NCBI GenBank assembly: GCA_016709225.1
Contig: JADJEE010000012.1
Span: 2,051,630 to 2,115,629, forward strand
DNA: 64,000 nucleotides
Source: Deltaproteobacteria bacterium
GTDB lineage: Bacteria; Myxococcota_A; Polyangia; Nannocystales; Nannocystaceae
Reading direction: 5' to 3'
A program made the translations under genes and the position numbers. The notes beneath the pieces were generated by a model. That model ran no database searches, was not told where the DNA came from, and saw only the letters and a program-made list of their open reading frames with translations. This document shows, in pieces, positions 8,858 to 36,993 of this stretch. Numbering within the stretch: position 1 is the stretch's first letter; every line of letters begins with the position of its first letter.

Positions 8858-9442
8858 GTGATTCCCTTCCGGACCGCAAGGCGCGATGCTCCGGCGGAAC
8901 GTCCCTTGTCGACGCGCACCATCGGTCTGGTCGCCCTCACCTGCCTCGCCCTCGGCGGCGCGGTGGCGTGGTACGCGGCCCGCACCGACGGCGCGCACGC
9001 GCCGGTGTCGGTCGTCGTGCCCGACGACGACGACGCCGACGACACCGACGCGGACGACGACGGGGAGAAGGCCGCCATGCAAGCCAAGGCGAAGATCTGC
9101 AAGAAGCTCGCGTGCACCGACTCGCAGCGCGGCGAGCTCGGTACCCTCATCCGAGTCTTTCGCGATGACACGCGCGAGCGCCGGGTGGAGCTGAAGAACC
9201 TGCGCGCCAGCGCAGCGCAGGCGTGGGCCTCGGCGACCCCCGACGCCGCCCGCATCGCAGAGATCGAAACCCGCGTGCTCGAGCTCGAGGGCGAGATCGA
9301 GGGCGCTGCCCGCGGCGCGCTGCTCGGCTTCCATCGCGTGCTCGACGACGAACAGCGGCGCAAGCTCTCGCGCTGGCTGCGACGCAAGAGCGCGCGCGAC
9401 CTGCTGCAGGACAAGCGCGTGCGCAGCTCCGAGAGCGAGTGA
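8858..9442 (+). CDS. periplasmic LTXXQ-motif (CpxP/Spy-like, heavy-metal-sensor-like) protein
   Basis: N-terminal TM or signal segment, an acidic linker, and two helical segments with LTXXQ-like motifs (CTDSQRGELGTLIRVF and LDDEQRRKLSRWL). The ORF ends 2 nt before the next gene. Confidence 0.5.
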   Translation: MIPFRTARRDAPAERPLSTRTIGLVALTCLALGGAVAWYAARTDGAHAPVSVVVPDDDDADDTDADDDGEKAAMQAKAKICKKLACTDSQRGELGTLIRVFRDDTRERRVELKNLRASAAQAWASATPDAARIAEIETRVLELEGEIEGAARGALLGFHRVLDDEQRRKLSRWLRRKSARDLLQDKRVRSSESE

Positions 9443-9444
9443 CG

Positions 9445-11208
9445 ATGGCAGCGATCTGTGGCTACGTCGGTCGCGGCGACGAGGCGCTGCTGCTGCGCCA
9501 GCTGGGACTGCTGCGCCATCGCGGCGCGCACGCGCACGCGACCCGCATCGGTCCCGCCGGTGGTCTCGCCGTCGCTTCGCCGCCGGGGCGCGTCGCCGCG
9601 GTGGGCAGCAGCCGCGACGCCAAGGTGCACTGCGTGCTCGACGGCGCGTTGTTCGAGCACGCCGCGCTCGCCAGCCAGCTGGGCCTACCGGCCACCGCCA
9701 GCGCGGCCGAGCTGGTCGCGGAGCTGCTGGCGACCAAGGGCCCCGCGGCGCTCGGACAGCTCGACGGTGCCTACGCCGTCGCCGCGCTGTTCGAGGACCA
9801 CGTGCTGCTCGCCCGCGATCCGCTGGGTGAGAAGCCCATCTACTACGCGACCCTACCCGATGGCCGCTTCGCGTTCGCCTCCGAGATCAAGGCGTTCCTC
9901 GCCGATCCGGCGTTCGTGGTGAAGCCCCACGAGCCTTCGCTGGTGTCGCTGTTGGTGTTCTCGTTCATCCCGGGCGAACGCAGCATGTTCGACGACGTGT
10001 TCGAGCTGCAGCCGGGCTGCCACATCGAGCTCGGCGCTCGCGGGGCCTCGCCGCTGGTCTCGCACTGGCAGCTGCACGAGCAGGTCGAAGACCACGAGCT
10101 GCCCTACTTCACCGCCGAGATCGAGCGGCTGTGCATCGATGCGGTCGATCGCCGCATTCCCGCCGACGGCCGCGTGACCGCGACGCTCTCCGGTGGGGTC
10201 GACTCGTCGGCAGTGGTCGCCCTGCTGGCGCGCCGGGGCTGCAAGCCGGTGTGTTTCTCGGCTGCCTTCGGCGACGGACAGCCCAACGAGCTCGGCTACG
10301 CGCGACTGGTCGCGGAGCACTGCAAGGTCGAGCACCGCGTCATCGACGTCGAGCCGGAGGGCTTCCTCGACCTGCTGCCGCGGGTGATGTGGAACCTCGA
10401 CGATCCGCTGTGCGATTGCATCACCGTGCCCAACTACTTGCTGGCACAGGCGGCCGCCCAGGAGGCGCCGGTGGTGTTCAACGGCGAGGGCGGCGATCCG
10501 CTCTTCGGCGGGCCGAAGAACAAGTTCCTCATCCTCGGCGAGTGGTACCGCGCCTACGGCGGCTATGACCGCGCGCGGGCCTACCTGGCCTCGTACCACA
10601 AGTTCTTCGAGCACGCCCACGAGCTGTGCACGCCCGAGCTCATGGCGCGCAGTGGCGGCACCGAGGCGCTGTGCGACTACGTGCGGCCACTGCTCGAGGA
10701 CGAGCGCATGGGCAACTTCCTCAACCGCCTGATGCACCTCAACATCAAGCTCAAGGGCGGCCAGAACATCCTCGTGAAGGTCGACAAGATGCTGTCGGCC
10801 AACGGCGTCGAGCCGGCCTCGCCGCTGTTCGATCGCAGGTTGGCGGAGTTCTCGTTCAAGATCCCACCGGTGCTCAAGCGCCGCGGCGATGTCGAGAAGT
10901 TCGCCTTCAAGAAGGCCATCGAGCACCTGCTGCCGCACCCCGTCGTCTATCGCAAGAAGTCCGGCATGGGTGTGCCGCTCAACCACTGGTTCCGTCGCGA
11001 GCCGCTGCGCAGCTACACCCGCGACGTGCTGCTGTCGTCGCACGCGCGTGGGCGCGGCTACTTCGACATGCGCTTCGTCGAGCGCCTGGTCGCCGGCAAG
11101 GCCCCGCACACCATGGTCGGCCGCGATCGCACCGGCGAGCTGCTGTGGATGCTGCTGGCGATCGAGCTGTGGCACCGCGTCTTCGTCGACGGTGAGGGAC
11201 GACCATGA
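9445..11208 (+). CDS. asparagine synthetase (AsnB) family protein, non-canonical N-terminus
   Basis: PP-loop SGGVDSS, a C-terminal synthetase domain and an N-terminal glutaminase-like domain (LLRHRG). The ATG at 9445 gives MAAICGYVG, so the Cys is at position 5 rather than the canonical MCGI. Confidence 0.8.
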   Translation: MAAICGYVGRGDEALLLRQLGLLRHRGAHAHATRIGPAGGLAVASPPGRVAAVGSSRDAKVHCVLDGALFEHAALASQLGLPATASAAELVAELLATKGPAALGQLDGAYAVAALFEDHVLLARDPLGEKPIYYATLPDGRFAFASEIKAFLADPAFVVKPHEPSLVSLLVFSFIPGERSMFDDVFELQPGCHIELGARGASPLVSHWQLHEQVEDHELPYFTAEIERLCIDAVDRRIPADGRVTATLSGGVDSSAVVALLARRGCKPVCFSAAFGDGQPNELGYARLVAEHCKVEHRVIDVEPEGFLDLLPRVMWNLDDPLCDCITVPNYLLAQAAAQEAPVVFNGEGGDPLFGGPKNKFLILGEWYRAYGGYDRARAYLASYHKFFEHAHELCTPELMARSGGTEALCDYVRPLLEDERMGNFLNRLMHLNIKLKGGQNILVKVDKMLSANGVEPASPLFDRRLAEFSFKIPPVLKRRGDVEKFAFKKAIEHLLPHPVVYRKKSGMGVPLNHWFRREPLRSYTRDVLLSSHARGRGYFDMRFVERLVAGKAPHTMVGRDRTGELLWMLLAIELWHRVFVDGEGRP

Positions 11209-11987
11209 GCGCAGGCTTGCCCAGGGGCGTGGTCGAGTCGGCGGCATCGGCGATGGCGACCACCGCCGGCTTCGTGTTCACGCGCAGCCAGCTGTTCTTC
11301 GAGCTGGTGCGCCGCGGCGCACTCGCCGATCCAGGCGCCGATCTGGACGGCGCGATGCAGGCGTTCGAGTCGCGTCTGGCCGCCTTCGAGCACGACCACG
11401 GCGAGCTCGAAGGGCTCATCCGACCCGAGCGCCTGGTCGATCTCCCGCCGCCGCCCGAGCTGCCACCCGACGTGCTCGACTACACGGTGCGCCGCGTGTT
11501 GGTGTTCGACCGCCTCGACACGTGCCTGTTCTTCGTCTGCAACGGCTTCCACCGGCGCATCGAGGTCGGGCTGGTGGTCTGGCCCGACGGCGCCGCAGAA
11601 CCCGGGGCCGCGGGCTTCCCCTCCCATGTGTGCGACCGCTTGCGCGCCCAGCTCGACGAGGGCCTGCCAACCGACTTCTTCCTCATCGGGGACTGCGGCA
11701 CGGCGGCGCGATCCTGGCGGCAACGCATGCACGCGACCCTCAAGCGGCCCCACGTGCGCGTGCGCGACGCGAGCCTGACATTCCCCTGGGCCTTCCGCCT
11801 GCGCCTGCCGGTGCGCGCCACCGGGCGCGCGCCCGACCCCCACGTCGTCATCCCCGAGGACCACGAATGGCGCGGCCTCTTGATGGTCGGCAGCTACGCG
11901 TCGCTGCAAGAGATGCCGCCGATGCGACTCATGCGATGGGTCTACCGCCGCGTGGCGCGGGGCGCCGAGGACGTCGGCTTCGGCTGA
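11205..11987 (+). CDS. hypothetical protein, translationally coupled to the upstream AsnB-like gene
   Basis: An ATGA start/stop overlap at 11205-11208. The composition is protein-like (W/F/Y/H present). No recognisable domain. Confidence 0.5.
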   Translation: MSAGLPRGVVESAASAMATTAGFVFTRSQLFFELVRRGALADPGADLDGAMQAFESRLAAFEHDHGELEGLIRPERLVDLPPPPELPPDVLDYTVRRVLVFDRLDTCLFFVCNGFHRRIEVGLVVWPDGAAEPGAAGFPSHVCDRLRAQLDEGLPTDFFLIGDCGTAARSWRQRMHATLKRPHVRVRDASLTFPWAFRLRLPVRATGRAPDPHVVIPEDHEWRGLLMVGSYASLQEMPPMRLMRWVYRRVARGAEDVGFG

Positions 11988-12080
11988 CGATCGGCATGAA
12001 ACCGCGCCGTCGCGAGCGGCAGCACACGCGCGCGGGCTTGCCACCGACGCCGTCGCTTTGATAACCAACGACGAACGATC

Positions 12081-12785
12081 ATGCAGCTGCTGCTGGAACC
12101 ACGCGACGGGGACGTCATCGATGCGACCTCGACCATGTACCCCAGCAGGCTCGTGGTCGTGCGCGGACGGCGGGAGCTGGGGCCTTCGACCTCGACCTTC
12201 TTCGGCTACGTGGTCGGCGGCAGCGGGCGCATGAAGGCCGGCAGCTTCGAGCTCTCGCTCGCGCCCGGCACGTTCTTCTGCGCGCCAGGACCGGTGCAGG
12301 TCGAGATCGACGGCATGGCGGTCGCGATCGAGCGGCTCGGCTATCGCGGCCTGCCGACCGCCGGCGTCATCGAGGACACCGGCCGCCTGACGTACATCGA
12401 CGGCTGCTCCGACACCATCCTGGTGTCACCGCCCCGCCAGGGCGATCCGGTGTTCAACTTCCTGCACTTTCCGCCGGGCATCCAACAGACCGTGCACTCG
12501 CATCCGTCGATCCGCCTGGGGGTCGTTGCCCGCGGCGAGGGCCATGCGTTCGGTCCCGCGCGAGCCGACGGTCGCCACGGCGCGCAGTGGCAGCAGCCGC
12601 TGCGGCCCGGGGCGGTGTTCCTGCTGCATCCCCACGAGCTGCACGCGTTTCGCACCACCGGTGACAGCGGCGAGCACGACGGCAACGAGCACGGCATGGA
12701 CGTCATCGCCTACCACCCCGACTCCGACTGGGGCCCGACCGATGGTGTCCACCCGATGTTGAACCGCACCTATCGCGGCACGTGA
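12081..12785 (+). CDS. cupin domain protein (bicupin-like)
   Basis: Cupin metal-site-like motifs HSHPSIRLGVVARGEGHAF ... LLHPHELHAF. Composition is plausible. Confidence 0.55.
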   Translation: MQLLLEPRDGDVIDATSTMYPSRLVVVRGRRELGPSTSTFFGYVVGGSGRMKAGSFELSLAPGTFFCAPGPVQVEIDGMAVAIERLGYRGLPTAGVIEDTGRLTYIDGCSDTILVSPPRQGDPVFNFLHFPPGIQQTVHSHPSIRLGVVARGEGHAFGPARADGRHGAQWQQPLRPGAVFLLHPHELHAFRTTGDSGEHDGNEHGMDVIAYHPDSDWGPTDGVHPMLNRTYRGT

Positions 12786-21889: not shown

Positions 21890-22860
21890 GTGCCCTCGTG
21901 CTCCTCGCGCTCGAGCTTGCGACGCCAGCGCTCCTCGTAGATGAAGAGGTCGATCATCAGCGGGTACCACAGCGACTGCATGCCGGCGTACATGAGGCCG
22001 GGCAGACCGTCGAGCCAGGCATGCTGCGCCACCACCGTGCGACCGAAGTGCACGAACGGCCGCAGGAACAGCGGCAACTTGTTGTAGGCCCAGCGCACGC
22101 CGACCGTGCGGCCGGCCTTGGTGCGCAACGAGAAGCCGTCGAGCCCGCGACGGTGATCGTCACCGTCGACGAAGTGTCGCGCCTCGCGCTGGGCGTAGCG
22201 CACGTGCTTGCGGAACCACTCCGCCAGCGGCTTGTGATCGTCGTGGCGTAGCTTGGCACCCAGACGGGTGACCCGCATGTGGCGGTCGTCGACGCGCTCG
22301 TTGGTGCCGCGGGAGAATCGCGCGACGTCGGGCCGCATCAGCCGCAGGATCGAGGCCCCACCGAAGCCACCGTGCTCGAGCTCGCGGCCCAGCACCACGA
22401 ACGTGAGCCCGACGTAGCCGCCGTCGAGATCGTCGCGGGCACAGGCCTGCTCGATCGCCCGCCACAGCGCGGGCGTGATCTCTTCGTCGGCGTCGAGGAA
22501 GAACACCCAGCGGTAGCGCGACTGCGCCTGCTCGAGCGCCCAGTTGCGCTGGCTGGCGTAGTCGACGAATGCGTGCTCGTGCAGCTCGGCACCGGCCGCC
22601 CGCGCGAGCGCGACGGTGCGATCGCGCGAGCCCGAGTCGACCACCATCACCGGCGCACGCCCCTGCACCGAGGCGATGGCCTTCTGGATGTTGGCCTCTT
22701 CGTCGAGCGTGAGGATGATGATCACCAGGGGCTCGCGGGCACCCGCGTCGGACGCAGGCCCGCGCTCACCGACGTGGGCCGAGCCGTCGTTGGCCGAGGC
22801 CTCGGACGGGCGCGCGGCCGTCGAGCCGTGGTGCGGAGGGAGCAGTGTCGAGATCGTCAT
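21886..22860 (-). CDS. family 2 glycosyltransferase
   Basis: LVIIILTLDEEANI...VVDSGSRDRT...FFLDADE (DxD) is a GT-A family 2 signature. The start is at MTISTLLPP, and the upstream ORF portion is junk. Confidence 0.8.
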   Translation of the reverse strand: MTISTLLPPHHGSTAARPSEASANDGSAHVGERGPASDAGAREPLVIIILTLDEEANIQKAIASVQGRAPVMVVDSGSRDRTVALARAAGAELHEHAFVDYASQRNWALEQAQSRYRWVFFLDADEEITPALWRAIEQACARDDLDGGYVGLTFVVLGRELEHGGFGGASILRLMRPDVARFSRGTNERVDDRHMRVTRLGAKLRHDDHKPLAEWFRKHVRYAQREARHFVDGDDHRRGLDGFSLRTKAGRTVGVRWAYNKLPLFLRPFVHFGRTVVAQHAWLDGLPGLMYAGMQSLWYPLMIDLFIYEERWRRKLEREEHEGT

Positions 22861-23015
22861 GGGATCGCGAGCCGGCGCAACTTCGATCGAACTACGTGCG
22901 CAGCATAGCACGACGTGAGGGTGCCGCGTCGGGCCGTGCGCGCGCGTGGTCCCGCCGGCGCCGTCGACACTCGCACCGCCACCGGAGTGCCGAGGTGCTA
23001 TGTTGCGTTCTGACG

Positions 23016-24404
23016 ATGGCGTTGGACCTCGCGGACGTGTACCGCCGATCGCCGGTATGGGCGCAACATGTGATGTGCTCGGTCGAGGGCTTCCGCCTGC
23101 GTCGGCTGCGGTTTTCGGCCGATTTCGAAGAACGCCTCGCGCAGGCAAGGATTCGCAGCGGCTGGACCATGGCGCAGCTACAGGCCCACCGTCTGGTGCG
23201 CCTGCGGGCGATGCTCGTCCATGCGCAGCGTCACGTTCCGTACTGGCGCGACGTGTTCGCGAGCTGTGGACTGCAGCCGGCCCGCATGCAACACGCCGAC
23301 GAGCTGACGGTGTTGCCGCTGCTCACCAAGGACATCGTCGTACGCGAGAGTCCGCGACTACGCGCAGGCGAGCTGCCCCACGCGGTCTTGCGCACGCCGG
23401 TCGAGCTACACACCAGCGGCACCACCGGCTCCGGACTCGAGCTGGTGGCCTCGGTCGAGGCGCTGCGCGAGCAGTGGGCGACCTGCTGGCGCTACCGCGA
23501 GTGGCACGGTCTGCGTCGCGGCACCTGGTGCGCCACGCTCGGCGGACGCGTCATCGTGCCCGCCGACGAGCGGCGTCCGCCGTACTGGCGCTTCAACGTG
23601 CCCGGTCGACAGCTGCTCATGTCGGGCCACCACTTCGGGCCCGCGACCGCGCCGGCGTACCTCGAGGTGCTGCGTCGCCATGAGATCCCGTGGATCCACG
23701 GCTATCCGTCGATGGTCGCGGCACTCGCCGACGCGGCGCTCACCACCGGCGCGCAGCTGCCCGCACTGCGCTGGGTGACGCTGGCCTCGGAGTCGGTGAG
23801 CGCTGGCCAGCGCCGACGCATCGTCGACGGACTCGGCGTGCAACCACGCGAGCACTACGCCCAGACCGAGTCGGTCGCGAACTTCAGCGAGTGCCCGCTC
23901 GGTCGCCTGCACGTCGACGAGGACCACGCGATGGTGGAGTTCATCCCGCACGGCCACGACGGCGGGCAGGCGTTGCACCGCGTGATCGGCACGTCGCTCG
24001 ACAGCTGGCACCAACCCTTCGTGCGCTACGATCTCGGCGACCTCGTGGTGCTCGACCATGCGCCCTGCCCCTGCGGCCGTCCGGGCCGCATCGTGCTCGA
24101 CGTCGATGGCCGCCGCGAAGACCTGGTCGAGCTCGCCGACGGGCGCCAGGTCGGGCGCGCCGGCGAGATCTTCAAGAAGCTCGAGTTCATCCGCGAGGCG
24201 CAGATCCGCCAGCGCACCGCCGGCGAGATCACCGTCGCGTTGGTCCCCCGCGGTGCTTGGACCGCCGCACACGAGGCCGAGCTGCGGGCCTCGGTCGACG
24301 CACGGCTGGGCAGCGACACCCGCATGCACGTCGAGCTGTGCGAGCAGCTGCCGCGCACGGCCTCGGGTAAGCTCCGCCATGTCGTTCGCGAGGGGAACGA
24401 CTAG
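23016..24404 (+). CDS. phenylacetate-CoA ligase / coenzyme F390 synthetase-like adenylate-forming enzyme
   Basis: Shows the PaaK-like pattern TSGTTGSG, a mid-domain YAQTE and a C-terminal GK (TASGKLRHVV). The start ATG is at 23016. Confidence 0.7.
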   Translation: MALDLADVYRRSPVWAQHVMCSVEGFRLRRLRFSADFEERLAQARIRSGWTMAQLQAHRLVRLRAMLVHAQRHVPYWRDVFASCGLQPARMQHADELTVLPLLTKDIVVRESPRLRAGELPHAVLRTPVELHTSGTTGSGLELVASVEALREQWATCWRYREWHGLRRGTWCATLGGRVIVPADERRPPYWRFNVPGRQLLMSGHHFGPATAPAYLEVLRRHEIPWIHGYPSMVAALADAALTTGAQLPALRWVTLASESVSAGQRRRIVDGLGVQPREHYAQTESVANFSECPLGRLHVDEDHAMVEFIPHGHDGGQALHRVIGTSLDSWHQPFVRYDLGDLVVLDHAPCPCGRPGRIVLDVDGRREDLVELADGRQVGRAGEIFKKLEFIREAQIRQRTAGEITVALVPRGAWTAAHEAELRASVDARLGSDTRMHVELCEQLPRTASGKLRHVVREGND

Positions 24405-24413
24405 GCCACCGTC

Positions 24414-26312
24414 ATGTGCGGCATCACCGGGATGATTCGGACCGGCGGCAGCGTCGACGCAGCGCTGCTCGATCGCATGACCGACAGTCTCGCCCACCGT
24501 GGCCCCGACGGTCGCGGCGTGCACATCGGCGACGGCTTCGGCTTCGGACATCGGCGGCTCGCGATCATCGATCTCTCGACGGGCGCGCAGCCGATGCACA
24601 GCGCCGACGGGATGCTGTGCATCACCTTCAACGGCGAGATCTACAACTACATCGAGCTCCGTGCGCAGCTGATCCGTGCCGGCCACCGCTTCGAGACCCA
24701 CAGCGACACCGAGGTGCTGCTCGCGGCCTACCGCGAGTGGGGCGACGAGATGTTCGGGCACCTCGATGGCATGTTTGCGTTCGGGCTGTGGGACGCGGGA
24801 CGACGGCGGCTGCTGTGTGCCCGCGATCATCTCGGCGTCAAGCCGCTGTACTACGCCGAGCAGCGCTCGCCGCTCGAGGGCGACACACCGCTGTCGTTCG
24901 CATCGGAGCCCAAGGCACTGCTGCAGTGCCCGTGGGTGTCGCGCGAGCTCGACCCGGTCGCGCTCGACGCCTACATGGATCTCTTCTACGTGCCGCCGCC
25001 GTTGTCGATGTTCCGCGGCGTGCGACAGCTACCGCCCGGCTCGGCGCTGTCGTGGTGCGATGGCAAGCTCGCGATCTGGCGCTACTGGGACGCGCCACCG
25101 ACCATCGACGAGCGCCACGACCTCGAGACCTGGGCCGAGATCGTGGAGCCGGTGCTCCGCGACGCGATCGTCATCCAGACCCGCAGCGACGTGCCTCTGG
25201 GCGCGTTCCTCTCGGGTGGGCTCGACTCCTCGACCATCACCGCGGTGCTGGCCGAACACGGCAGCGCGCCGGTCTCGACCTTCTGTGTCGGCTACGGCGA
25301 CGAGGGCAAGAGCTACGACGAGCGGGAAATGGCGCGGGTGGTCGCTCGGCACTTCGGCACCGATCACCACGAGGTCGTGCTCGACATCGACGTGCTGCAG
25401 GGTCTCGAGGCGATGGTGCGCGGCTTCGACGAGCCGTTCGGCAGCCCGACTGCGCTGCTGTCGTCGGCGCTATCGAAGTTCACCCGTGGCAGTGTGACCG
25501 TCGCGCTCGCCGGCGACGGTGGCGACGAGCTGTTCGGCGGCTACCCCCGCTACCGCGGCATGATGCTGTCGGAGCGCGTGTCGGGCCTGCCCGAGGGCGT
25601 CTACAACGCCGGCGAGCGGCTCGCCCAGGGCCGCGAGGCCGCGGTCGCACGCAGCTATCGACGGTGGGCTCGCCAGTTCTTCGCCGGCGCGGCATTGCCC
25701 CCCGCCGAGCGCTACGCCCGCTGGGTCGGTTACACCAGCGTGGCCGAGCGCGACGGCATGTACACCCCGGCCTTCCGTGAGCGCATCGTCTCGGCGGGCC
25801 GCGTCGATCCGGTCGCAGCGTGCTTCGCCGGGCCTGCCCACGGCGATGCGGTCGAGCGCGCCGCCTATGCCGATCTGCACGGCTTCCTGCCCGAGAACGT
25901 GCTGCGCGGCTCCGATCGCATGAGCATGGCCTGGGGTCTCGAGCTGCGGGTGCCGCTTTGTGACGTGCGGCTGGTCGAGCTCGCGATGCAGATCCCCTCG
26001 CGGCACCGCGTCGGCGCGCTCGCGAGCAAGCGCGTGCTGCGACGCATCGCCGAGAACCTGCTGCCCAAGCAGATCCTCGAGCGCAAGAAGCTCGGCTTCA
26101 ACGCCCCGCTGGGCGTGTGGCTGCGCCGAGATCTCGATCGACTGGTCTCGCAGTGGCTCGCACCGGAGCTCGTGCGCGCGCGGGGGTGGTTCGACGCCGA
26201 CGCCGTCACCCGGATCGTGCACGAGCATCGCGAGGGGCTGCGAGACCACGGGCTGCGGCTGTGGTCGCTCATCGCGATCGAGCAGTGGCACCGCTGCTAC
26301 GGCGAGGCCTAG
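24414..26312 (+). CDS. asnB: asparagine synthetase (glutamine-hydrolysing), canonical MCGI N-terminus
   Basis: MCGITGMI Ntn-Cys start, HRGPDG, RLAIIDL, a PP-loop SGGLDSS, and a typical length of 632 aa. Confidence 0.85.
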   Translation: MCGITGMIRTGGSVDAALLDRMTDSLAHRGPDGRGVHIGDGFGFGHRRLAIIDLSTGAQPMHSADGMLCITFNGEIYNYIELRAQLIRAGHRFETHSDTEVLLAAYREWGDEMFGHLDGMFAFGLWDAGRRRLLCARDHLGVKPLYYAEQRSPLEGDTPLSFASEPKALLQCPWVSRELDPVALDAYMDLFYVPPPLSMFRGVRQLPPGSALSWCDGKLAIWRYWDAPPTIDERHDLETWAEIVEPVLRDAIVIQTRSDVPLGAFLSGGLDSSTITAVLAEHGSAPVSTFCVGYGDEGKSYDEREMARVVARHFGTDHHEVVLDIDVLQGLEAMVRGFDEPFGSPTALLSSALSKFTRGSVTVALAGDGGDELFGGYPRYRGMMLSERVSGLPEGVYNAGERLAQGREAAVARSYRRWARQFFAGAALPPAERYARWVGYTSVAERDGMYTPAFRERIVSAGRVDPVAACFAGPAHGDAVERAAYADLHGFLPENVLRGSDRMSMAWGLELRVPLCDVRLVELAMQIPSRHRVGALASKRVLRRIAENLLPKQILERKKLGFNAPLGVWLRRDLDRLVSQWLAPELVRARGWFDADAVTRIVHEHREGLRDHGLRLWSLIAIEQWHRCYGEA

Positions 26313-27563
26313 TCGCTCGTGGTGGCCTGCTGGCAGGCTCGAGCACTTCGAGCTGCACGAGCGCATCGACCAGCACGCTCACGCGCTCGACGTGGGCAGG
26401 ATCGACGCGCAACGGCGCCTCTGCGGTAGCGTGAAGGAGCTCCGCGATCGAGAACGGCACGCCCTCGGTCGCCAGCATCCATCGACTCGGATCGACGAGC
26501 GTCGGACCGAGCTCGACCTCGATGTCGTCGCAACACAGGGAGCATCCGCCCCCCTCGGCGACCTCGATCCTGGCGTTCGCCGCGTGGCGAAGTCGGAACT
26601 GCGTCGAGCTCGCGGGAAGGTGGGCGAGTCGGGAGCTCGTTGCGCGTTCGATGACCTCGCGCACGTCCAACGACTCGACCAGCGCGTGCAAGCGATCCAC
26701 GGCGGCGGCGAGCTCCCGATGCGCGTCCGACCGTGCTCGCCCCGGCAAGCCGAGACCGACCGCCGGGCGACGCAGCCGCGGATCTGCCGTCAGCAAGGAG
26801 GTCATCGCGCGAGCCAGCAGCCGCGCCCACGAGTCGGGCTGGAACATGAACGACACCGAACACGAGACGGTGTCACCGATCGCTCCCGTGCGATGCCACA
26901 TGCCACTCGGGACGAACATCGCGGTGCCTGCCACGAGACGAACGCTTCGCGGTGTGTCGAAGGCCGAGCAATCGAAACGTCGCGGCCCATACTCGGGCGG
27001 CGACAGCCCAGGCAAACCATCGAGCGGACCACGGACTGGTTCGTCGGGGTGTCCTGCACGATGGGGGTGTCGGACATCCGGGTTGTCCGCGAGCTGCCAC
27101 TGCTTGGAGCCCACCACCTGCGCGACGATCACGTCGGCACCATCGAAGTGCCAGCCATAGGCGTCGCTGGCACCGGGCGGCGAGTAGACGATCCGGGTCG
27201 TGACGATCGACGCGGGGAAGCCGAGTTCGCGCGCCAGATCAGCACCCACGTTGGCGAGCGGCGGGTGGATCTCGGCGTGCGCGATCTGGATGCTCTGGCC
27301 GTCCTCGAAGCGCCGCAGCGCGTCGTCCCGCTCGAGCTCGTGTCGCGTGACGAGCCGCCCCTGGGCATCTGCCGCGAATGACGAGAGGGTGCAGCGGCGG
27401 TCCAGGCAGGGCAGCAGCTGAGCCGGGTCATGCGGGAGCGCTGCGAGTGGTCCGAGCCGCAGGGGGTCGCCTCGAACCCCAACGACCTCGCGTCGAGCCA
27501 GGCGTGGAGCAGTGCATCGACGCTGATGCCGGGCAGTACGTCGCCGATTCGCAAGTGCCGCAT
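26269..27563 (-). pseudogene. JmjC/cupin-4 family hydroxylase (ribosomal-oxygenase-like), apparent frameshift at C5 run 27462-27466
   Basis: The ATG at 27563 lies 9 nt after the upstream gene's stop and gives MRHLRIGDVLPGISVDALLHAWLDARSLGFEATP. The JmjC domain (DDALRRFEDGQSIQIAHAEIH...VYSPPGASDAYGWHFDGADVIVAQVVGSKQWQL) is in the -1 frame from about 27466. A sixth C in the CCCCC run would give continuous ...GFEATPLRLGPLAALPHDPAQLL... Confidence 0.6.
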
Positions 27564-27571
27564 GGGGGACC

Positions 27572-29764
27572 CTAGTACACGGTGCCCGCGTGGTCGCGCG
27601 GAGCGAACATGGCGAAGCCGAAGATCGAGGTGCTCGCGGACGGCTGCGGCTCGCGCCAGTGCTCGACTGCCGTCCCTCGGTAGAGCACGGCCTCGCCGGG
27701 CTCGAGCCCGATGGCGACATCACCGGCGGCGCCGCGAAGCCACAACGGCCACAGCGGAGCATCGGGTGGCGACGTGACGTCGTAGGCGATCGAGACGTTC
27801 CAGGTGCAGCCTGGCCGATCGGTGTGTCGGAGTAGCTCGGCACGCTCGCCGTAGATCCGCACGTAGCACAACGTGGGTCGAACCTCCTCGTCGACCATCG
27901 ACGAGATGATCGGGACCAGCTGGTGCTGCCAGAAGCGGGTCGCGACCTCGAAGTGAATGCCCAGGTGACCGAGATACCGGTGCTCGCGGTGGAATGCCCC
28001 CGCGCGAGCCAGGCCCTCGAGATGGCGGCCGAGTCCCTGCAGCTGCGGGCGGTTCAGCCACCGCGGGAGGCGTGCGTAGCCGAAGCTGCGGTAGTGCTCG
28101 CGCGCAACCTCGACCTCGCGGCGCCACTGCTCGCTTCGCCGCTCGCGATCTCCGGGCGCGAGCAAGATGCCCGCCTCGCGCAACATCGCGATCTCCGATG
28201 CGTCGAAGTCCCACGCCCGCGGTCCCGAGGCCCACAGCGAGTCGAACCGCGCGGCCTCGCGCGGGGCCGCGCGGTAGGGCGCCCACATGCCGCTGCCCGG
28301 ATCCCTGACCCACGCCGTCGGTCCGTGGGGAGCGAGCCGCAACGCGAACCCGAGCGTGGTCGCGATCTGTGGCGGCACGTCGGGGGTCGTCTGCACCACG
28401 TGCTCGGGATTGACGGCGAACTCCGTCGACTCCGACAACGCGGTGGCCCCTGACGGCCGTGCGCCGATCTCGGCCACCCAATCCTGCGAGACCTCGGTAC
28501 CCAGCGTCGGCGCGTCGCCGAGGACGCGCCGAAGTGCCGGTCGAGTGCGGATCCGTCGGGCGATCGCGAGGATGTCGGCCCTGCCTCGCTCGACGTCCTC
28601 GGCGTCGAAGACTGCGGCGACACGGGCAAGCAGCGCGTCCTCGTCGCAGCCGTCGAACAGGCCTCGCAGCAAGATCTCCGAGACGGGGTCTTCGGAGAGA
28701 GCGAGTGGGTCACGCAGTTGACCGAGCCAGCCCCACAGGACCTCGTCGATCGCGTGCTCGGGGTAGAGCTGCCCGAGCAGCGCGCGCATGCATGCGCGGT
28801 CGGGAACCAGCATCAGCAGGAACAGTGCGAGCCGCTGCTCGGGGTTCACGTCGGTGCGCACGCTGAGCAGCGAGTGCCGCTCGTGGACCCGAGTGATCGC
28901 CGCTTCGATGCGCAGCATGACGTCGCCGTGCACGGTGCGACCGCTCTCACAGAGGTCGGCGAGCATCGCCGACGGCACACCGAGCGCTGCGGCCCTCGCG
29001 AGCAGCTCGATGGATGCGGCGAGCGGCGACTCGCGGATCGCGACGTCGAGGCAAGCCTCGATCGCGAAGGGCGCGAATCGTCGCGGCACCTCGGCCAGCG
29101 CCCGGTATCGGAGCCGTTCGCGGGGCGTCGGCGGCCGACGCACGTACGCGACGCCCGGCGGAAGGATGGTCCACTCGGGTTGGCGCGCCGTCGTGCGCAC
29201 GAGCACCGTCGCCGCGGCCGCGTCGAGCGTCATGCACTGACACGCGAGTGGTGCGGTTCGCACGATGCTTCGCAGGTCCCCCGGCGTCAGGACCTCGGCG
29301 CCGGCCCAGCTCAGCTCACCGAGGCGGACGTCGGCGTGCTCGCGCGCGACCTCGGCGAAACGCCATTGGGCGCGAGCGATACGTCCCTCGACGACCGCGA
29401 GCACTCCCGTATCGTGGCGCTCCACCAGCTCGGTGGTCTGCTCGAACCACAGCTCCGCCTCGATCTGGAGGCCATCTGCCGCGTAGAGCTCCACCACGAT
29501 CCCATCGCCTTCGGCGGCGGACGAACTCCCGTCGGAGAACACGAGGTGGGCGAGACCGCGACAGAACCCGATCCCGGTCGTGGGTGTCTGCACGAGCACG
29601 TCGTGGGCGATGTCATCGAACGCCGCCTCGGCCCGACCCGCACGGGTCCAGCGGCCGTCGATCCTCGCCGCGACGAGCTGGGCCCATGCGCGTACCGCCG
29701 CGGCATCGTGCGCGGGACCGAAGGCGTGCGCGCGCGCGGCCGTGAGATCCCAGGGAGCGCTCAC
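27572..29764 (-). CDS. large hypothetical protein with C-terminal 2OG-Fe(II)-oxygenase-like (HxD...H) domain
   Basis: The 730-aa N-terminal two thirds have no recognised motif. The C-terminal 200 aa contain LRHTDRPGCTW (HxD) ... GEAVLYRGTAVEHWREP (distal His), consistent with a double-stranded-beta-helix oxygenase. The GTG start at 29764 overlaps the TGA of the upstream TPR gene (GTGA). Confidence 0.55.
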   Translation of the reverse strand: MSAPWDLTAARAHAFGPAHDAAAVRAWAQLVAARIDGRWTRAGRAEAAFDDIAHDVLVQTPTTGIGFCRGLAHLVFSDGSSSAAEGDGIVVELYAADGLQIEAELWFEQTTELVERHDTGVLAVVEGRIARAQWRFAEVAREHADVRLGELSWAGAEVLTPGDLRSIVRTAPLACQCMTLDAAAATVLVRTTARQPEWTILPPGVAYVRRPPTPRERLRYRALAEVPRRFAPFAIEACLDVAIRESPLAASIELLARAAALGVPSAMLADLCESGRTVHGDVMLRIEAAITRVHERHSLLSVRTDVNPEQRLALFLLMLVPDRACMRALLGQLYPEHAIDEVLWGWLGQLRDPLALSEDPVSEILLRGLFDGCDEDALLARVAAVFDAEDVERGRADILAIARRIRTRPALRRVLGDAPTLGTEVSQDWVAEIGARPSGATALSESTEFAVNPEHVVQTTPDVPPQIATTLGFALRLAPHGPTAWVRDPGSGMWAPYRAAPREAARFDSLWASGPRAWDFDASEIAMLREAGILLAPGDRERRSEQWRREVEVAREHYRSFGYARLPRWLNRPQLQGLGRHLEGLARAGAFHREHRYLGHLGIHFEVATRFWQHQLVPIISSMVDEEVRPTLCYVRIYGERAELLRHTDRPGCTWNVSIAYDVTSPPDAPLWPLWLRGAAGDVAIGLEPGEAVLYRGTAVEHWREPQPSASTSIFGFAMFAPRDHAGTVY

Positions 29765-31308
29765 GGTGCCTCCGCGATCGAGCGAAACAGCGCGAGGTTC
29801 TGCTCCAGGCGCGGCGAGTCTGGCCGGAGACGGGCACACGACTCGAGCAGCGCGAGCGACGTGTCCAGATGACCGTCGGTGACGGCGATCGCCTGAGCCA
29901 GCAGCGCGACCCCGCATTCGTGGTGATCCTCGTCCCATGAGGTCAGGTCGTGCCGCGACAGCAACGCACGCGTGCGTTCGTACTTCCCTGTGCGGTTCCA
30001 GAGCGAAGCGAGGTTGCAGATGTGATAGGGGCTGACCGGCTCGAGCTCGGCGGCGCGCGCGAGCGATGTTTCACCACGCACGTCGTCGCCCGCGGCGACG
30101 AACGCACGACCCATCAGCGAGTGCGCGGTCGCGAGGTACGGGTCGATCTCCCGGGCCCGCTGGGCAGCGAGCAAGGCTGTCTCCGGACGGCCAGCCGCCA
30201 GCTCCCAACGGGCCCAATCCATCGGGTAGTACGGATACGTGGGATCGAGATCGAGCAATCGCCGATAGCTCACCTCCGCACGTGCGGCGTCCCCCAGCGC
30301 CCGCAGGCAGAGGATGCGGTTGTACTCGAGCACCGAGTGGTGCAGATCGACCTCGGCGCCCGCGAGTTCACGCAGACGCGCGATCCCCAGATCGAGCGAT
30401 GCGAGCGCCTCGCGAACTCGCCCACGCTTGAACCATACTAGCGCGAGGCCGTTGCGGTTGAACACGCGACGAAACGCGAGCTCCGGGTCGCGATCGGAGG
30501 GGTCGAGGCCGACGATGATCTCGTACGCCTCCTGTAGATACGCCTCGCCGCGATCGAGGTCGCGAAAGCTCGAGGCATGGTGGCGAATCGCGAGCATCGC
30601 GAGCGAGTAGCAGGCCCGCGCGCGGTCGAGCGGCTCGGCGTGGGCGTAGACCCGCCCGAAGTGGTACTCGGCCTCGAACGGCCGCAGCGTGGCGTTGGCC
30701 GCGACGCCGAGCAGCATCTCGACCTCGACGTGGAACCGCTCGCGGGCAAGTCGACGCGCGAGACGCTCGCTCGTGTGGTAGTCGCCGACGTACGTGCACG
30801 TTCGCGCGGCATCGAGGACTCGCACGAACTCGTCGTCGGTCAGCGGCCGCTCGCGCAAGCATGCGCTGGCGACCTCCGCCTCGCGCCGCCCGGCGGGGTC
30901 GTCCGACGCCGCCTCGACCTCGGCAGTTCGCGAGAACGTCATCTCGATGCGACAGCTGGGGAGGTGGTGACCAAGCGCATGGAAGAACAGCGCGGTGCCC
31001 TCGTGGATGTGCTCGCAGCCCTCGATCTCGATGCGATCGAGCCCACGGCAGGCGTGCTTGCTCGCTGCCGCGAGTGTGAACAGACGCTGCCGCACCAGCG
31101 GCTCGGTGAAGTAGCGCAGCTGGGTGTCGACGGTCGTCGCATCGGTGAGGTGGGACTCGGCGCGAACGTCCTCGACGCCGCCATCGGTCCCGCGGACCAG
31201 CAGGTGCGCAACCTGTTCGGGCACGCTGCTCGGGCGGTACCCGACGCGATCGAGGAATTCGCGGACCGGGGCGAACTCGAAGGGGGTTCGACGACAACGG
31301 ACATGCAT
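29761..31308 (-). CDS. TPR-repeat protein with N-terminal uncharacterised domain
   Basis: The start is at MHVRCRRTPFEFAPVREFL (31308). The C-terminal 350 aa are TPR-like (YYPMDWARWELAAGRPETALLAAQRAREIDPYLATAHSLMGRAF...). Confidence 0.65.
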   Translation of the reverse strand: MHVRCRRTPFEFAPVREFLDRVGYRPSSVPEQVAHLLVRGTDGGVEDVRAESHLTDATTVDTQLRYFTEPLVRQRLFTLAAASKHACRGLDRIEIEGCEHIHEGTALFFHALGHHLPSCRIEMTFSRTAEVEAASDDPAGRREAEVASACLRERPLTDDEFVRVLDAARTCTYVGDYHTSERLARRLARERFHVEVEMLLGVAANATLRPFEAEYHFGRVYAHAEPLDRARACYSLAMLAIRHHASSFRDLDRGEAYLQEAYEIIVGLDPSDRDPELAFRRVFNRNGLALVWFKRGRVREALASLDLGIARLRELAGAEVDLHHSVLEYNRILCLRALGDAARAEVSYRRLLDLDPTYPYYPMDWARWELAAGRPETALLAAQRAREIDPYLATAHSLMGRAFVAAGDDVRGETSLARAAELEPVSPYHICNLASLWNRTGKYERTRALLSRHDLTSWDEDHHECGVALLAQAIAVTDGHLDTSLALLESCARLRPDSPRLEQNLALFRSIAEAP

Positions 31309-31390
31309 GGAGACCTCGACGACGCGGCACCCACACCACGGTGCGGCCAAGTTGGGGTCGCGCCGTGGATCGCGGCGTGCGATGTGAAGT

Positions 31391-31416
31391 GTGCGGACGG
31401 ACAAACCCGTCCGCAC
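31391..31416 (-). other. stable stem-loop (GUGCGGACGG-loop-CCGUCCGCAC) immediately 3' of the small ORF; possible attenuator or partial terminator
   Basis: A perfect 10-bp inverted repeat with a 6-nt loop. There is no U-tract, so it is not a classic intrinsic terminator. Confidence 0.45.
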
Positions 31417-31428
31417 GAGGTTGGCGAG

Positions 31429-31590
31429 CTACCGCCGACTCGGCGGGACCGTGTACATCAGCGGGCCGCCAGGCTCGAGCGGCGTCGACTGTCCGACGCC
31501 ACCCTTGATCTGGGTGAGCTGCTCCAACGTCAACGATCGCTTCGTCGTAGGCGCCGGCTCCGGTGCCGGCTTCTTGTCTTGCTTCGTCAT
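31429..31590 (-). CDS. 53-aa precursor-like peptide with double-glycine-type leader (MTKQDKKPAPEPAPTTKRSLTLEQLTQIKGG | VGQSTPLEPGGPLMYTVPPSRR)
   Basis: Hidden at the C-terminal end of junk ORF 31429..32154(-). An ATG at 31590 is preceded by GAGGAGAAACA. LTLEQLTQIKGG fits the LSxxELxxIxGG leader consensus. The stop is at 31429-31431 and a 10-bp GC hairpin follows 13 nt downstream. Confidence 0.6.
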   Translation of the reverse strand: MTKQDKKPAPEPAPTTKRSLTLEQLTQIKGGVGQSTPLEPGGPLMYTVPPSRR

Positions 31591-31593
31591 TGT

Positions 31594-31603
31594 TTCTCCT
31601 CGA
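31594..31603 (-). promoter_or_regulatory. Shine-Dalgarno (GGAG, 5-nt spacer) for the precursor-like small ORF
   Basis: Minus-strand mRNA reads CUCGAGGAGAAACA-AUG. Confidence 0.5.
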
Positions 31604-31873
31604 GGCCGCCGAAGCGTCCGAGAATTCGGAACGCACCATGATGAGTAGGGCCGACCTCGCGCGCGGTAGACCTGCGGATCCGCGCTTCGATCACCCGCGG
31701 GGCCCTCGCACCGTCGCAAGACGACGAAGACACCACCCTTGGAAGGGAGCGTCGGTGCACGCAGCGCACGGCCCTGGCCTTGCGGCTCGCACGCACCCTC
31801 CGCACGCGCGGGCCAGTCGCGGCGGCGCTCGTCGTGCTGGCGCTGCTCGGGTGCCCGCTGCGGTACCCTCGAG

Positions 31874-32779
31874 GTGGTGGCCGATCCCCACGACGACGAC
31901 GATGACGACGACGTTCCCCTGCGTGCCCGCGCGGTGCCGGAGGTCGAGGTCGACGTCGACGCACTCGCGGCCGACCTGCAGACAGCGGCGTCACGGACGC
32001 CGGCGTACGACGACATCGACCTCGGCGGCGCCCGCGACGACGAACTCGACGGCGGCGATGACCTCGAGGACCTCGAGGCAGAGTTCGAGGAGCTCGATGA
32101 GCTGCTCGAGGCCGTCGAGCCCTCCGAGGCCTCCGAGCCGCCCGAGGAGGCCACGCAGCCACGTCGGCTCTACCTCGCCGTCGACGGTCGCCTGCACGTG
32201 GTGTCGACCGAGCGCTTCGTGATCGGCCGGGTCTCGAGCCAGTGCGACCTGACCATCGTCGACGCCAACATCTCGCGCCAGCACTGCGCGATCGAGCGCC
32301 GCGACGGCCTGTTCTTCGTGGTCGATCTGGGCAGCACCAACGGCATCATCGTGGACGGCATGCGCGTCGACGATCACCCGATCGCCGACGGTGAGGTGCT
32401 GGTGCTGTCGGGGCACCGAATCGTCTGCAGCTTCGAGCCGCCCGAGCTCGAGGCCGTCGCAGCGCCGCAGCCGATGGCAACGCCGGTTGCCGTGCGTCCG
32501 GCAGTGACCGCCCGCCTGTCACCGGTGTCGCCGGCGACCCCCGAGGCCTTCGTGGCGACGCCCACCGCCGCCCGCGCGCCGACGCCCGTGTCGATCCCCG
32601 CGGCCACACCCATGGGCTTCGAGCAACGCGTGGAGCAGCAACTCGCCGCGATGGCCGCCCAGCTCGCCGCGCTCACCTTCGCGGTGCAGCGCCTCGTCGA
32701 GCAGGGTGAGTCGCTCAAGGGCGTCGAGGCGCTCGCGCAGGTGATCCAGCGCCGCTTCGAGCAGAGCAAGCGCGGCTAG
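31874..32779 (+). CDS. FHA-domain protein with acidic N-terminal region (start uncertain)
   Basis: FHA core FVIGRVSSQCDLTIVDANISRQHCAIERRDGLFFVVDLGSTNGIIVDG. A GTG near 31874 is chosen because no ATG is available upstream of the domain. It ends 1 nt before the GNAT gene. Confidence 0.6.
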   Translation: MVADPHDDDDDDDVPLRARAVPEVEVDVDALAADLQTAASRTPAYDDIDLGGARDDELDGGDDLEDLEAEFEELDELLEAVEPSEASEPPEEATQPRRLYLAVDGRLHVVSTERFVIGRVSSQCDLTIVDANISRQHCAIERRDGLFFVVDLGSTNGIIVDGMRVDDHPIADGEVLVLSGHRIVCSFEPPELEAVAAPQPMATPVAVRPAVTARLSPVSPATPEAFVATPTAARAPTPVSIPAATPMGFEQRVEQQLAAMAAQLAALTFAVQRLVEQGESLKGVEALAQVIQRRFEQSKRG

Positions 32780-34437: not shown

Positions 34438-35460
34438 TCAGAGCTTCCAGAACCGCTGCTGTCGCTGTTGGGCCGCACGCAGATCCTGCTCCGCGCGACC
34501 GCTGGTCCGGCGGTCGTTGGTCGGTGCCACGGCGCCGGCAAGCACGTCAATGCAGGCGTGCACGCTCTTGGCCAGGCCCGCGAGGTCGTAGCCGCCCTCG
34601 AGCGTGAGCACCATGCCGATCTCGCGGCGCTTGGCGAAGCTCTGCAGCTTGCCACAGAGGTTGGCGAAGCCGTCCTCGGTGAGTGCCATGCCACCCAGGG
34701 GGTCGTCGCGGTGGGCGTCGAAGCCGGCCGACACCAACACGAAGTCGGGGTCGTACTGCTCGGCGATGGGCAGTACCAGCTCGTCGAACACGCGCGCGTA
34801 GTCGCCATCGGCGGCGCCGGCCTGCAGCGGCACGTTCACGGTGTGGCCCAGGCCCGCGCCGATGCCGACCGCCGAGGTGTCGCCGGTGCCGGGGTAGAGC
34901 GGGAACTGATGCAGGCTGCAGAACAGCACCGAGTCGGTGTCGTAGAAGATCGACTCGGTACCGTTGCCGTGGTGGACGTCCCAGTCGACGATGAGGATGC
35001 GCCGCTTGAGATGTACCGCGCGCGCGTGGGCGGCCGCGACCGCGACGTTGTTGAACAGGCAGAAGCCCATCGGTCGGCCCGCGACCGCGTGGTGACCGGG
35101 CGGGCGCACCAGCGCGAACGCGTTGCCGACGTTGCCGGCACACACCTCGTCGACCGCCTGCACCGCAGCGCCGGCCGCCAACGCAGCTGCGCGCACGCTG
35201 CTCGGTGACACGTGCGTGTCGGGATCGAGGCTGCCGTACTGTCCCGCGAACGCGCCGACGCGAGCGATGTGCTCGAACGTGTGGACCCGCGCGATCTGTT
35301 CTTCGGTCGCGGGCTTGGGCGCATCGATGCGCAGGTGGGTGGTGGTTCGCAGGCTCAGCATCGCCTCGATCGCGCGCAGGCGATCGGGTCGCTCCGGATG
35401 ACCGGGACCAGGATCGTGTTCGATCATCCGGTCGTCGTAGAGCAGGAGCGTCTCGAGCAT
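34438..35460 (-). CDS. histone deacetylase-family (AcuC/HDAC-like) amidohydrolase
   Basis: The start is at [25 protein letters not shown] (ATG 35460). HDAC signatures are present: [28 protein letters not shown] and EGGY. The upstream 500 codons of ORF 34438..36972 are antisense of the aspartate kinase gene. Confidence 0.85.
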
Positions 35461-35661
35461 GCGCAACTCCGGCGAGCCGACCGGGCTCGCACGACGCGAG
35501 CCCAGACACCGCCGCCGAGCATAGCGGCACAGCGTGGGAGATCGCAGCCCCGTCGTGGCGACGTTGACGAACGCGGCCAAGCCCCGGAAACTCCGGCCGT
35601 CGTCGCCTGGCCCCCGCGGTCGCGAGAGGGCACCGCGCGCAAACGACCGGAGCAAGCATCC

Positions 35662-36993
<1,332 letters not shown>

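Follow-up and report, generated by a model that had tools for sequence, protein, structure and literature searches.

A candidate RiPP-like cassette joining a double-glycine-type peptide gene to a TPR protein and two predicted Fe(II)/2-oxoglutarate oxygenases in uncultured bacteria

The DNA analyzed here is a stretch of 64,000 nucleotides (nt) from the genome assembly of a Deltaproteobacteria bacterium (GCA_016709225.1, contig JADJEE010000012.1, positions 2,051,630 to 2,115,629), referred to below as the window. Its minus strand carries a cassette of four genes, in which the gene for a 53-amino-acid (aa) peptide is followed by those for a tetratricopeptide-repeat (TPR) protein, a 730-aa fusion protein with a predicted Fe(II)/2-oxoglutarate (2OG) oxygenase domain, and a JmjC_2 (cupin-4) oxygenase. 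An earlier reading made from the sequence alone had proposed that these genes form a system resembling those of peptides that are ribosomally synthesized and then modified post-translationally (RiPPs), with two hydroxylases acting on the product of the small open reading frame (ORF). We found that a short leader-core gene lies beside the enzyme genes, and is conserved together with them, in the window lineage and at least four distant others with different flanks, the pattern by which RiPP clusters are generally recognized. At the level that genomics can reach, the interpretation as a RiPP-like oxidation system is supported, and the peptide is probably oxidized after translation by the enzymes of the cassette. 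The features discussed below are as follows, with positions counted in the window.

31591 to 31873: divergent intergenic region between the peptide gene and an FHA-domain gene, the presumed promoter site.
31429 to 31590, minus strand: precursor-like peptide gene, 53 aa (MTKQDKKPAPEPAPTTKRSLTLEQLTQIKGGVGQSTPLEPGGPLMYTVPPSRR), with its ATG at 31590 and a TAG stop at 31431-31429.
31590-31498, minus strand: predicted leader, M1-G31, terminating in LTLEQLTQIKGG.
31497-31432, minus strand: predicted core, V32-R53, VGQSTPLEPGGPLMYTVPPSRR.
31391 to 31416, minus strand: GC-rich stem-loop between the peptide and TPR genes, with a 10-bp stem and a 6-nt loop.
29761 to 31308, minus strand: TPR protein, 515 aa, assigned from sub-cutoff Pfam TPR matches, sequence matches in PDB, and an AlphaFold2 model searched with Foldseek.
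27572 to 29764, minus strand: fusion protein, 730 aa, whose GTG start at 29764 overlaps the TGA of the TPR gene as GTGA.
29764-28511, minus strand: N-terminal part of the fusion, residues ~1-418, comprising a helical region, a cupin (82-208), and a helical bundle.
28447-27575, minus strand: C-terminal part of the fusion, residues ~440-730, a prolyl-hydroxylase-like 2OG oxygenase domain with H647-x-D649...H702-x-R704.
26269 to 27563, minus strand: JmjC_2 (cupin-4) oxygenase gene, with its ATG at 27563 after an 8-nt spacer from the previous stop.

The 53 codons form the end of a longer in-frame ORF (241 aa, 31429-32154) that the sequence-only reading had taken for junk apart from the small gene hidden in it. 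Codon composition bears this out: the GC contents of the 53 codons at the first, second, and third positions (GC1/2/3) are 0.60/0.55/0.85, which is gene-like and close to the GC3 of the neighboring genes (0.83-0.86), whereas the upstream part has a non-coding composition (GC2 0.78, GC3 0.79) and is antisense to a genuine plus-strand gene for an FHA-domain protein. A Shine-Dalgarno sequence, GAGGAG, lies at 31601-31596 on the minus strand, 5 nt ahead of the ATG. Both the ORF and this site were found exactly where they had been placed, and translation gives the peptide that had been quoted. NCBI lists the peptide as hypothetical protein IPH07_33610 from a Deltaproteobacteria metagenome-assembled genome (MAG), and gene callers also predicted the ORF on other contigs.

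Across the six frames of the whole window, the pattern L[ST]xx[EQ]Lxx[IVL]xGG matches a single segment, LTLEQLTQIKGG (31533-31498), which brings the double-glycine consensus LSxxELxxIxGG immediately before the predicted mature peptide, as had been claimed. The leader, L-T-x-E-Q-L-x-x-I-K-G-G, fits that consensus at positions -12, -11, -7, -4, -2, and -1, and the short peptide with its Lys-rich N-terminus likewise resembles the double-glycine peptides processed by C39 peptidases (class II bacteriocins, pheromones, and RiPP precursors). In contrast, its core is Cys-free and Pro-rich, unlike those of typical bacteriocins or lanthipeptides, and no C39 peptidase or ABC transporter accompanies it in the window or in the cassette flanks examined. 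Scores against NCBIfam fell below the cutoffs (13.6 bits against 35 for the EntF induction factor and 12.5 against 24 for RiPP_CCRG-2), and no Pfam family matched the peptide. With scores under the cutoffs and no cognate transporter linked, membership of the leader in the double-glycine family is not established.

Word-indexed searches with the 730-aa and TPR proteins returned only near-identical copies. An exhaustive HMMER search with the 730-aa protein retrieved 2197 relatives, and the closest full-length one (P0006, 34% identical) is encoded on contig L002, where a small ORF and a hairpin are followed by genes for a 514-aa TPR protein, a 743-aa fusion protein, and a 416-aa JmjC protein. A metagenome scan added contig L008 (fusion protein 36% identical), which has the same order and carries a TylF-family O-methyltransferase gene between the two oxygenase genes. 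The three peptides were then combined into a profile, which retrieved six variants from 5.8 billion proteins, namely that of the window and five others in four other lineages.

Window variant: leader MTKQDKKPAPEPAPTTKRSLTLEQLTQIKGG, core VGQSTPLEPGGPLMYTVPPSRR.
Second variant: leader ending in PKQRRLTKEQLEAIRGG, core VSNSQPNPGTKPVFYTEPAT.
Third variant: leader ending in RSKRLSKEQLDAIRGG, core VTTNLPDPTSKPVFYTQPTTETGTKPTGG.
Fourth variant: leader ending in RSKRLSKEQLDAIRGG, core VANNLPDPKSKPVFYTQPTTEPVSKPVGG.
Fifth variant: leader ending in RAKRLTKEQLEAIRGG, core ISTNLPDPSARPVFYTQPVKI.
Sixth variant: leader ending in RVKRLTKEQLEAIRGG, core LTTNLPDPTTQPVFYTEPVGVEPTGTRPTG.

The leader of the family reads KR-L-[TS]-x-EQL-x-x-I-[KR]-GG (L[TS]KEQL[ED]AIRGG in the five variants other than that of the window). 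The core aligns without gaps over 18 residues as V1-x4-P6-x5-P12-[VL]13-[FM]14-Y15-T16-x-P18, in which P6, P12, Y15, T16, and P18 are invariant, and the C-terminal tails beyond these 18 residues vary greatly. A Pro-Pro pair in the window peptide is absent as a conserved feature from the other variants. The five lineages comprise the window with L001, L007, and L014-L021; L002 and L003; L008; L009-L012; and L013 (a partial contig). The order of peptide, hairpin, TPR, fusion, and JmjC was found with every variant whose contig is long enough; L009-L012 hold the full cassette amid unrelated flanking genes, L013 holds its first half only, and the flanking genes are unrelated between lineages.

Conservation and synteny of the small ORF had been named beforehand as a main point on which the proposal would stand or fall, and the ORF is conserved, in five variants beyond the window's and in the same order. 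Between L002 and L008, the best-matched lineages, 21 of the 34 aligned peptide residues are identical, 10 of these through different codons, and the nucleotide differences number 9/6/16 at codon positions 1/2/3; this pattern fits a translated gene under purifying selection. The window differs from the other lineages in all four products (identities of 37-41% for the peptide, 48% for the TPR protein, 34-36% for the fusion, and 43% for the JmjC protein), and the JmjC proteins of the other lineages are 62-67% identical among themselves. Because the window version is the outlier for each gene, the four genes appear to have been inherited together. Judged by these comparisons, the small ORF is a real translated gene.

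The 10-bp GC stem-loop that the sequence-only reading had described after the peptide stop was located at 31416-31391, 12 nt past the stop, and has the form GUGCGGACGG-GUUUGU-CCGUCCGCAC. The 81-nt segment that contains the hairpin folds better than its shuffles (z = -2.67); the stem-loop has no U tract and was not called as an intrinsic terminator. A strong GC hairpin stands just past the peptide stop in all five lineages, each time with a different sequence, and may act as an attenuator or a transcript stabilizer. On the other side of the peptide gene, the FHA gene (predicted as 301 aa in relatives) is transcribed divergently; no sigma-70 consensus was found in the intervening 31591-31873 region, and the promoter there is therefore only presumed.

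The TPR gene follows the peptide gene on the same strand, as had been reported. Its Pfam TPR matches fall just under the cutoffs, and its sequence matches in PDB are TPR proteins. Residues ~152-515 were modeled as a superhelical TPR solenoid, for which Foldseek returned matches to the OGT TPR domain. Residues 1-151 were modeled with a pLDDT below 50 (AlphaFold2 on three sequences) and have no family match; they are conserved between lineages (48%), with four conserved cysteines (C5, C87, C98, and C119) and the motifs SPFEFAxVRxFL, SHLTD, and TQLR. The whole protein is 48% identical to its counterparts in L002 and L008. The 4-nt overlap between the TPR stop and the fusion start is kept in all five lineages; the two proteins are translationally coupled and probably form a complex. 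We hypothesize that the TPR protein serves as a scaffold.

Searches of Pfam and NCBIfam with the 730-aa protein and nine relatives gave no match, apart from a weak sub-cutoff hit to 2OG-FeII_Oxy_2 in one relative, and the relatives are annotated as 'hypothetical', or as 'sulfotransferase' when fused to such a domain. An AlphaFold2 model built on 74 sequences (pLDDT 87.5) gave the C-terminal domain a double-stranded beta-helix fold that is nearest to the 2OG oxygenases. Within it, conservation of H647, D649, and H702 is 90% or higher over the 74 sequences, and all three are invariant in the nine-sequence set. The C-terminal HxD...H pair and the GTGA coupling described earlier are thus both confirmed. 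The closest structures include PPHD, a Pseudomonas enzyme acting on EF-Tu, and PHD2, which acts on HIF. The window domain differs from them in its low identity (13-15%) and lack of a Pfam 2OG-FeII_Oxy match, in a basic residue that lies two positions past the distal His (H702-W-R704) rather than about ten, in an extra N-terminal segment of ~100 residues with a conserved Trp, in its fusion to the cupin-helical part, and in a presumed small-peptide substrate. Its fold neighbors also include HalB, SnoK, and SnoN, i.e., halogenases, carbocyclases, and epimerases. For prolyl hydroxylase activity, the modeled fold similarity is a lead only.

The N-terminal cupin, whose fusion to the oxygenase domain had gone unnoticed, resembles thiol dioxygenases of the cysteine-dioxygenase type in its modeled fold. 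In most relatives it carries IHQHxFSGAF...SSVH...IHQLFH, and the histidines are present in nine relatives. In contrast to these and to the thiol dioxygenases themselves, the window protein and its two nearest relatives, P0006 and P0007, have all of these histidines replaced (ERH, RIAR, and ACQCMT stand in place of HQH, SSVH, and IHQLFH), leaving no three-histidine iron site. Because the histidines are replaced, metal-dependent catalysis by the cupin is unlikely in the window branch, where the domain is probably non-catalytic.

The last gene of the cassette matches Pfam JmjC_2 (PF08007) at 42.3 bits against a cutoff of 22, and its closest solved structure by sequence is Bacillus subtilis YxbC (1VRB/7ZCC; E = 6e-15 over residues 71-310). 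The iron triad HxD...H (WHFD...WHRT) is conserved in the five lineages. Unrelated folds in the downstream proteins had been listed as grounds for abandoning the proposal; the conserved JmjC_2 triad and the 2OG-like C-terminus of the fusion instead point to oxygenases in both. Searches with a profile of the C-terminal 110 aa of the JmjC protein, where a winged-helix or RRE-like domain was sought, gave no meaningful PDB or Pfam match. The family and the position directly behind the fusion stop (8-nt spacer) agree with the earlier description of this gene, but its frame is not intact in the window: a 1-nt deletion between 27479 and 27478 breaks it, the triad lies in the downstream frame, and the GC3 phase switches inside the gene. 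At this site the window reads TTGG-GGTT, compared with TTGGTGGTT in L001 (99.5% identical) and TTGCTGGTT in L007 (97.4% identical), so that the missing base falls within a G run. An intact 431-aa protein is encoded in L001 and in the eight assemblies L014-L021, which give an identical peptide, and L007 has the extra base. Because these ten other assemblies, of the same organism or close relatives, read through the site, the break is private to the window assembly. It is best explained as an assembly error or a recent, private mutation, and the ancestral cassette had a complete JmjC gene. The 3' end of the gene overlaps a convergent asparagine-synthase gene (24414-26312, plus strand) by 44 nt (26269-26312), and the same arrangement occurs in L014.

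Taken together, the cassette may work as follows. The 53-aa product would comprise a Lys-rich leader of the double-glycine type, an 18-residue conserved core, and a variable tail, and the stem-loop past the peptide stop would allow the short message for the peptide to build up relative to those for the enzymes. The TPR superhelix, the degenerate cupin-helical module, or both would hold the peptide while the prolyl-hydroxylase-like Fe(II)/2OG domain oxidizes the core, most likely by hydroxylating at least one invariant proline. The YxbC-like JmjC enzyme would oxidize a C-H bond of a further conserved residue in a second, different reaction, the candidates being [MF]14, Y15, and T16. In L008, the TylF-type enzyme would methylate the newly made hydroxyl, which would fit the location of the O-methyltransferase gene between the oxygenase genes. 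As a last step, a peptidase-transporter whose gene lies in another part of the genome would cut off the leader behind GG and export the product. The peptide as substrate, GG as cleavage site, and hydroxylation at these residues are our hypotheses. Prolyl hydroxylation specifically is less likely than not; because halogenases, carbocyclases, and epimerases are among the fold neighbors, the enzymes may instead form cross-links or act oxidatively in other ways.

Several observations weigh against a RiPP-like oxidation system, among them the broken JmjC frame of the window. A Pfam scan of 37 window ORFs found no C39 peptidase or ABC transporter domain, as had been stated for the window, and no protease or transporter was found in the cassette flanks of L002, L008, L009-L012, or L014-L021. 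Because neither is linked to the cassette, GG cleavage and export are suggested by the motif alone. Pfam likewise detected no leader-binding domain of the RRE/PqqD type in the TPR, fusion, and JmjC proteins. The closest structural relatives (PPHD, PHD2, and YcfD-type JmjC proteins) modify full-size proteins. The enzyme families are also not specific to RiPP-like settings: fusions of the C-terminal oxygenase domain to sulfotransferases are frequent, and a Haliangium MAG (L022, 4734-8326) encodes the cupin-helical N-terminal domain as a stand-alone 441-aa homologue, whose gene overlaps the end of a 756-aa rhomboid-domain gene by 4 nt and has no peptide, JmjC, or 2OG gene nearby. Finally, 185,579 species-representative genomes held no relative of the cassette. 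The cassette has been seen in uncultured bacteria only, the window's peptide being annotated in a 'Deltaproteobacteria bacterium' MAG, and because it is rare and absent from the species-representative genomes, no cultured carrier was identified.

The lack of a linked exporter or leader peptidase in all five lineages would also fit a product that is not exported as an antibiotic would be but remains in the cell, or goes back into it, to act as a signal or to yield a small redox cofactor. In that case, Tyr15 (with Thr16 and the prolines) would be oxidized, e.g., to a dihydroxyphenyl, quinone, or cross-linked form, and GG would be a recognition element only. Peptide-derived cofactors are well known (PqqA gives rise to PQQ and MftA to mycofactocin), but the known pathways depend on radical-SAM enzymes and dedicated proteases, and neither occurs here. 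Consistent with such a product are the one invariant Tyr within a rigid, Pro-rich core, two different oxygenases in series, and the surroundings of the cassette, which consist of housekeeping and regulatory genes and not of a large biosynthetic cluster; the leader, however, closely matches the exported double-glycine type, and the highly variable C-terminal tails are no less compatible with a processed, secreted peptide than with other products. On balance, we regard a cofactor or signal as unlikely.

Alternatively, the target of the enzymes and the TPR protein might be a cellular protein (a translation factor or ribosomal protein, for example), in the manner of PPHD and YcfD, and the small ORF might be a regulatory upstream ORF whose translation, together with the hairpin, controls expression of the operon. 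The JmjC_2 family includes ribosomal-protein hydroxylases, and the C-terminal domain of the fusion is structurally closest to protein hydroxylases whose targets are EF-Tu and HIF. The layout, in which a small ORF and then a conserved hairpin directly precede the operon, is also that of an attenuator; the hairpins, however, have no U tracts, and the Pro-Pro pair of the window peptide, which would suit such a role, is not conserved in the other variants. Retention of the leader and the 18-residue core at 37-41% identity while the codons drift is unexpected for an attenuator peptide. Moreover, the leader is of a specific double-glycine form, and the type of peptide shifts together with the enzyme subfamily. 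We therefore consider a regulatory ORF quite unlikely. A decaying, non-functional remnant with an inconsequential small product, as the JmjC frameshift might suggest, is very improbable given the intact reading of JmjC in ten other assemblies (L014-L021, L001, and L007), the conservation of all catalytic residues, and the loss of a single base in a G run, most simply an assembly error or a private mutation.

Among known systems, two JmjC precedents bear on the RiPP-like interpretation. In the curacozole pathway, a Phe of the precursor is hydroxylated by CzlI, a JmjC oxygenase resembling YxbC (PMC11575548). CzlI shares with the window enzyme its JmjC-subfamily Fe/2OG assignment, a location beside a RiPP precursor gene, and YxbC (1VRB) as nearest structure, the two being likened by description and not by direct sequence comparison. 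Its role, however, is that of accessory tailoring, non-essential to a cyanobactin-like azole pathway, whereas the window cassette has oxygenases as its only enzymes. The biphenomycin operon combines a JmjC ornithine gamma-hydroxylase, BipG, with BipC, which is annotated as 'TPR' (PMC12707348), and thus resembles the window in pairing a JmjC hydroxylase with a TPR-annotated protein. BipC, however, is a UPF0489 arginase with Mn-binding motifs, and the window TPR protein has neither; moreover, the window cassette lacks the MNIO, the B12 radical-SAM enzyme, the HExxH hydroxylase, and the TldD protease that biphenomycin maturation further requires. CzlI and BipG alike are accessory to pathways whose central chemistry is another. 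An early comparative-genomics study, which does not describe the window cassette, noted frequent clustering of JmjC genes in bacteria with those of classical 2OG oxygenases, methyltransferases, and sulfotransferases, in neighborhoods devoted to peptide modification (PMC2938197).

A literature search gave no account of the cassette or of the core motif PVFYT; the literature searched is incomplete, and this absence is not proof. CzlI and BipG were the only precedents found for cupin, prolyl-hydroxylase, or JmjC RiPPs, and because they are already known, a JmjC enzyme in a RiPP pathway is not new by itself. To our knowledge, 2OG and JmjC oxygenases act only as accessory tailoring enzymes in known RiPP pathways. 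It is possible, though somewhat short of an even chance in our view, that the cassette represents a new RiPP class, in which the TPR scaffold, the pseudo-cupin/prolyl-hydroxylase-like fusion, and the JmjC enzyme are the class-defining maturases and install several oxidations on a Pro/Tyr core, giving hydroxyprolines, an oxidized or cross-linked Tyr-Thr unit, or both.

New peptide chemistry and enzymes come in large part from RiPP pathways, and further RiPP families are regularly discovered. If the interpretation is correct, the unannotated C-terminal domain family (2197 HMMER matches) holds a new branch of peptide-modifying oxygenases. With two oxygenases and a TPR protein as the whole pathway, the cassette would be a minimal, portable peptide-oxidation system, and its small size (~5.3 kb, four genes) makes heterologous expression feasible. 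The family of the 730-aa enzyme has thousands of members and no annotation, and a defined 18-residue substrate would give it a first testable function. The loss of the cupin metal site exactly in the branch with Cys-free peptides suggests that a catalytic domain has possibly turned into a binding domain.

Relatives of the fusion gene in sister branches are accompanied by other small ORFs. On L004 (7734-7982) and L005 (655-912), ORFs of 82-85 aa that share LxxxELKxVFGxR...MIPANEPCPTxPHNHD...FQKVIV lie directly upstream of a fusion-family gene with the cupin histidines kept, behind which comes a JmjC_2 gene; the same pair of enzymes seems here to serve another peptide family, distinct from the first. 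On L006 (316-8022), five small ORFs with leaders of the KKLKLNKETVKDLTAK...VKGG type and Cys-containing cores surround a 753-aa fusion-family gene and a split LanC-like gene, and no JmjC gene is present there. The sister branches (L004-L006) thus keep the cupin histidines (IHQH...H) and have Cys peptides, whereas the window branch has neither. This correlation comes from a handful of loci and is only suggestive; if the cassette does represent a new RiPP class, the sister branch with its intact thiol-dioxygenase-like cupin beside Cys peptides would hint at a second new chemistry, in which peptide cysteines are oxidized. Assignment of the sister-branch enzyme beside LanC to the sulfoxide-forming CoiH/LanH family was considered and rejected, CoiH/LanH being described without a 2OG motif or a known fold. 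Elsewhere in the family, P0049, P0051, P0073, P0083, P0098, P0134, and P0135 join the C-terminal oxygenase domain to a sulfotransferase-like N-terminal domain with the motif PRSGSTLLFDLLA. In Micromonospora WP_148801362.1, labeled only as 'sulfotransferase', the oxygenase half is unannotated.

Three further candidate systems were examined and discarded. A lasso peptide was suggested by the adjacent AsnB homologue, i.e., the convergent asparagine synthase, and by a core Glu nine residues after the Gly. The homologue, however, reaches a score of 261 with the lasso cyclase model, whose cutoff is 525, and best matches an exopolysaccharide-type amidotransferase; it retains the N-terminal glutaminase Cys, is convergent, and is absent beside the cassette in other lineages, and the acidic core position is not conserved (L008 has Asn). 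A BipC/OspR-type peptide arginase, suggested for the TPR protein by the RR end of the core, was rejected, as there is no UPF0489 match or Mn motif and the other cores lack Arg. An RRNPP-type quorum-sensing receptor with its pheromone was also rejected, since the domain searches gave no DNA-binding domain and translational coupling ties the TPR gene to an oxygenase gene.

The remaining observations concern other genes of the window. Directly upstream of the asparagine-synthase gene, 22845-24401 encodes a 519-aa protein with sub-threshold similarity to PaaK, F390 synthetase, and DVU_1553-type adenylating ligases; together the two genes resemble exopolysaccharide-type (PEP-CTERM amidotransferase) neighborhoods and not part of the peptide cassette. 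A second asparagine-synthase homologue at 9169-12782 has a weak, N-terminally truncated glutaminase domain, scores below the cutoffs of the lasso and macrolactam cyclase models, and is followed by two unannotated proteins of ~260 aa, one with a faint cupin_2 match. An 844-aa ORF with a histone-deacetylase domain (34441-36972, minus strand) is mostly a long-ORF artifact, opposite to which lies 35209-36990 on the plus strand; at this site, related assemblies have a 340-aa deacetylase gene and, on the opposite strand, a gene for a 443-aa aspartokinase-like protein.

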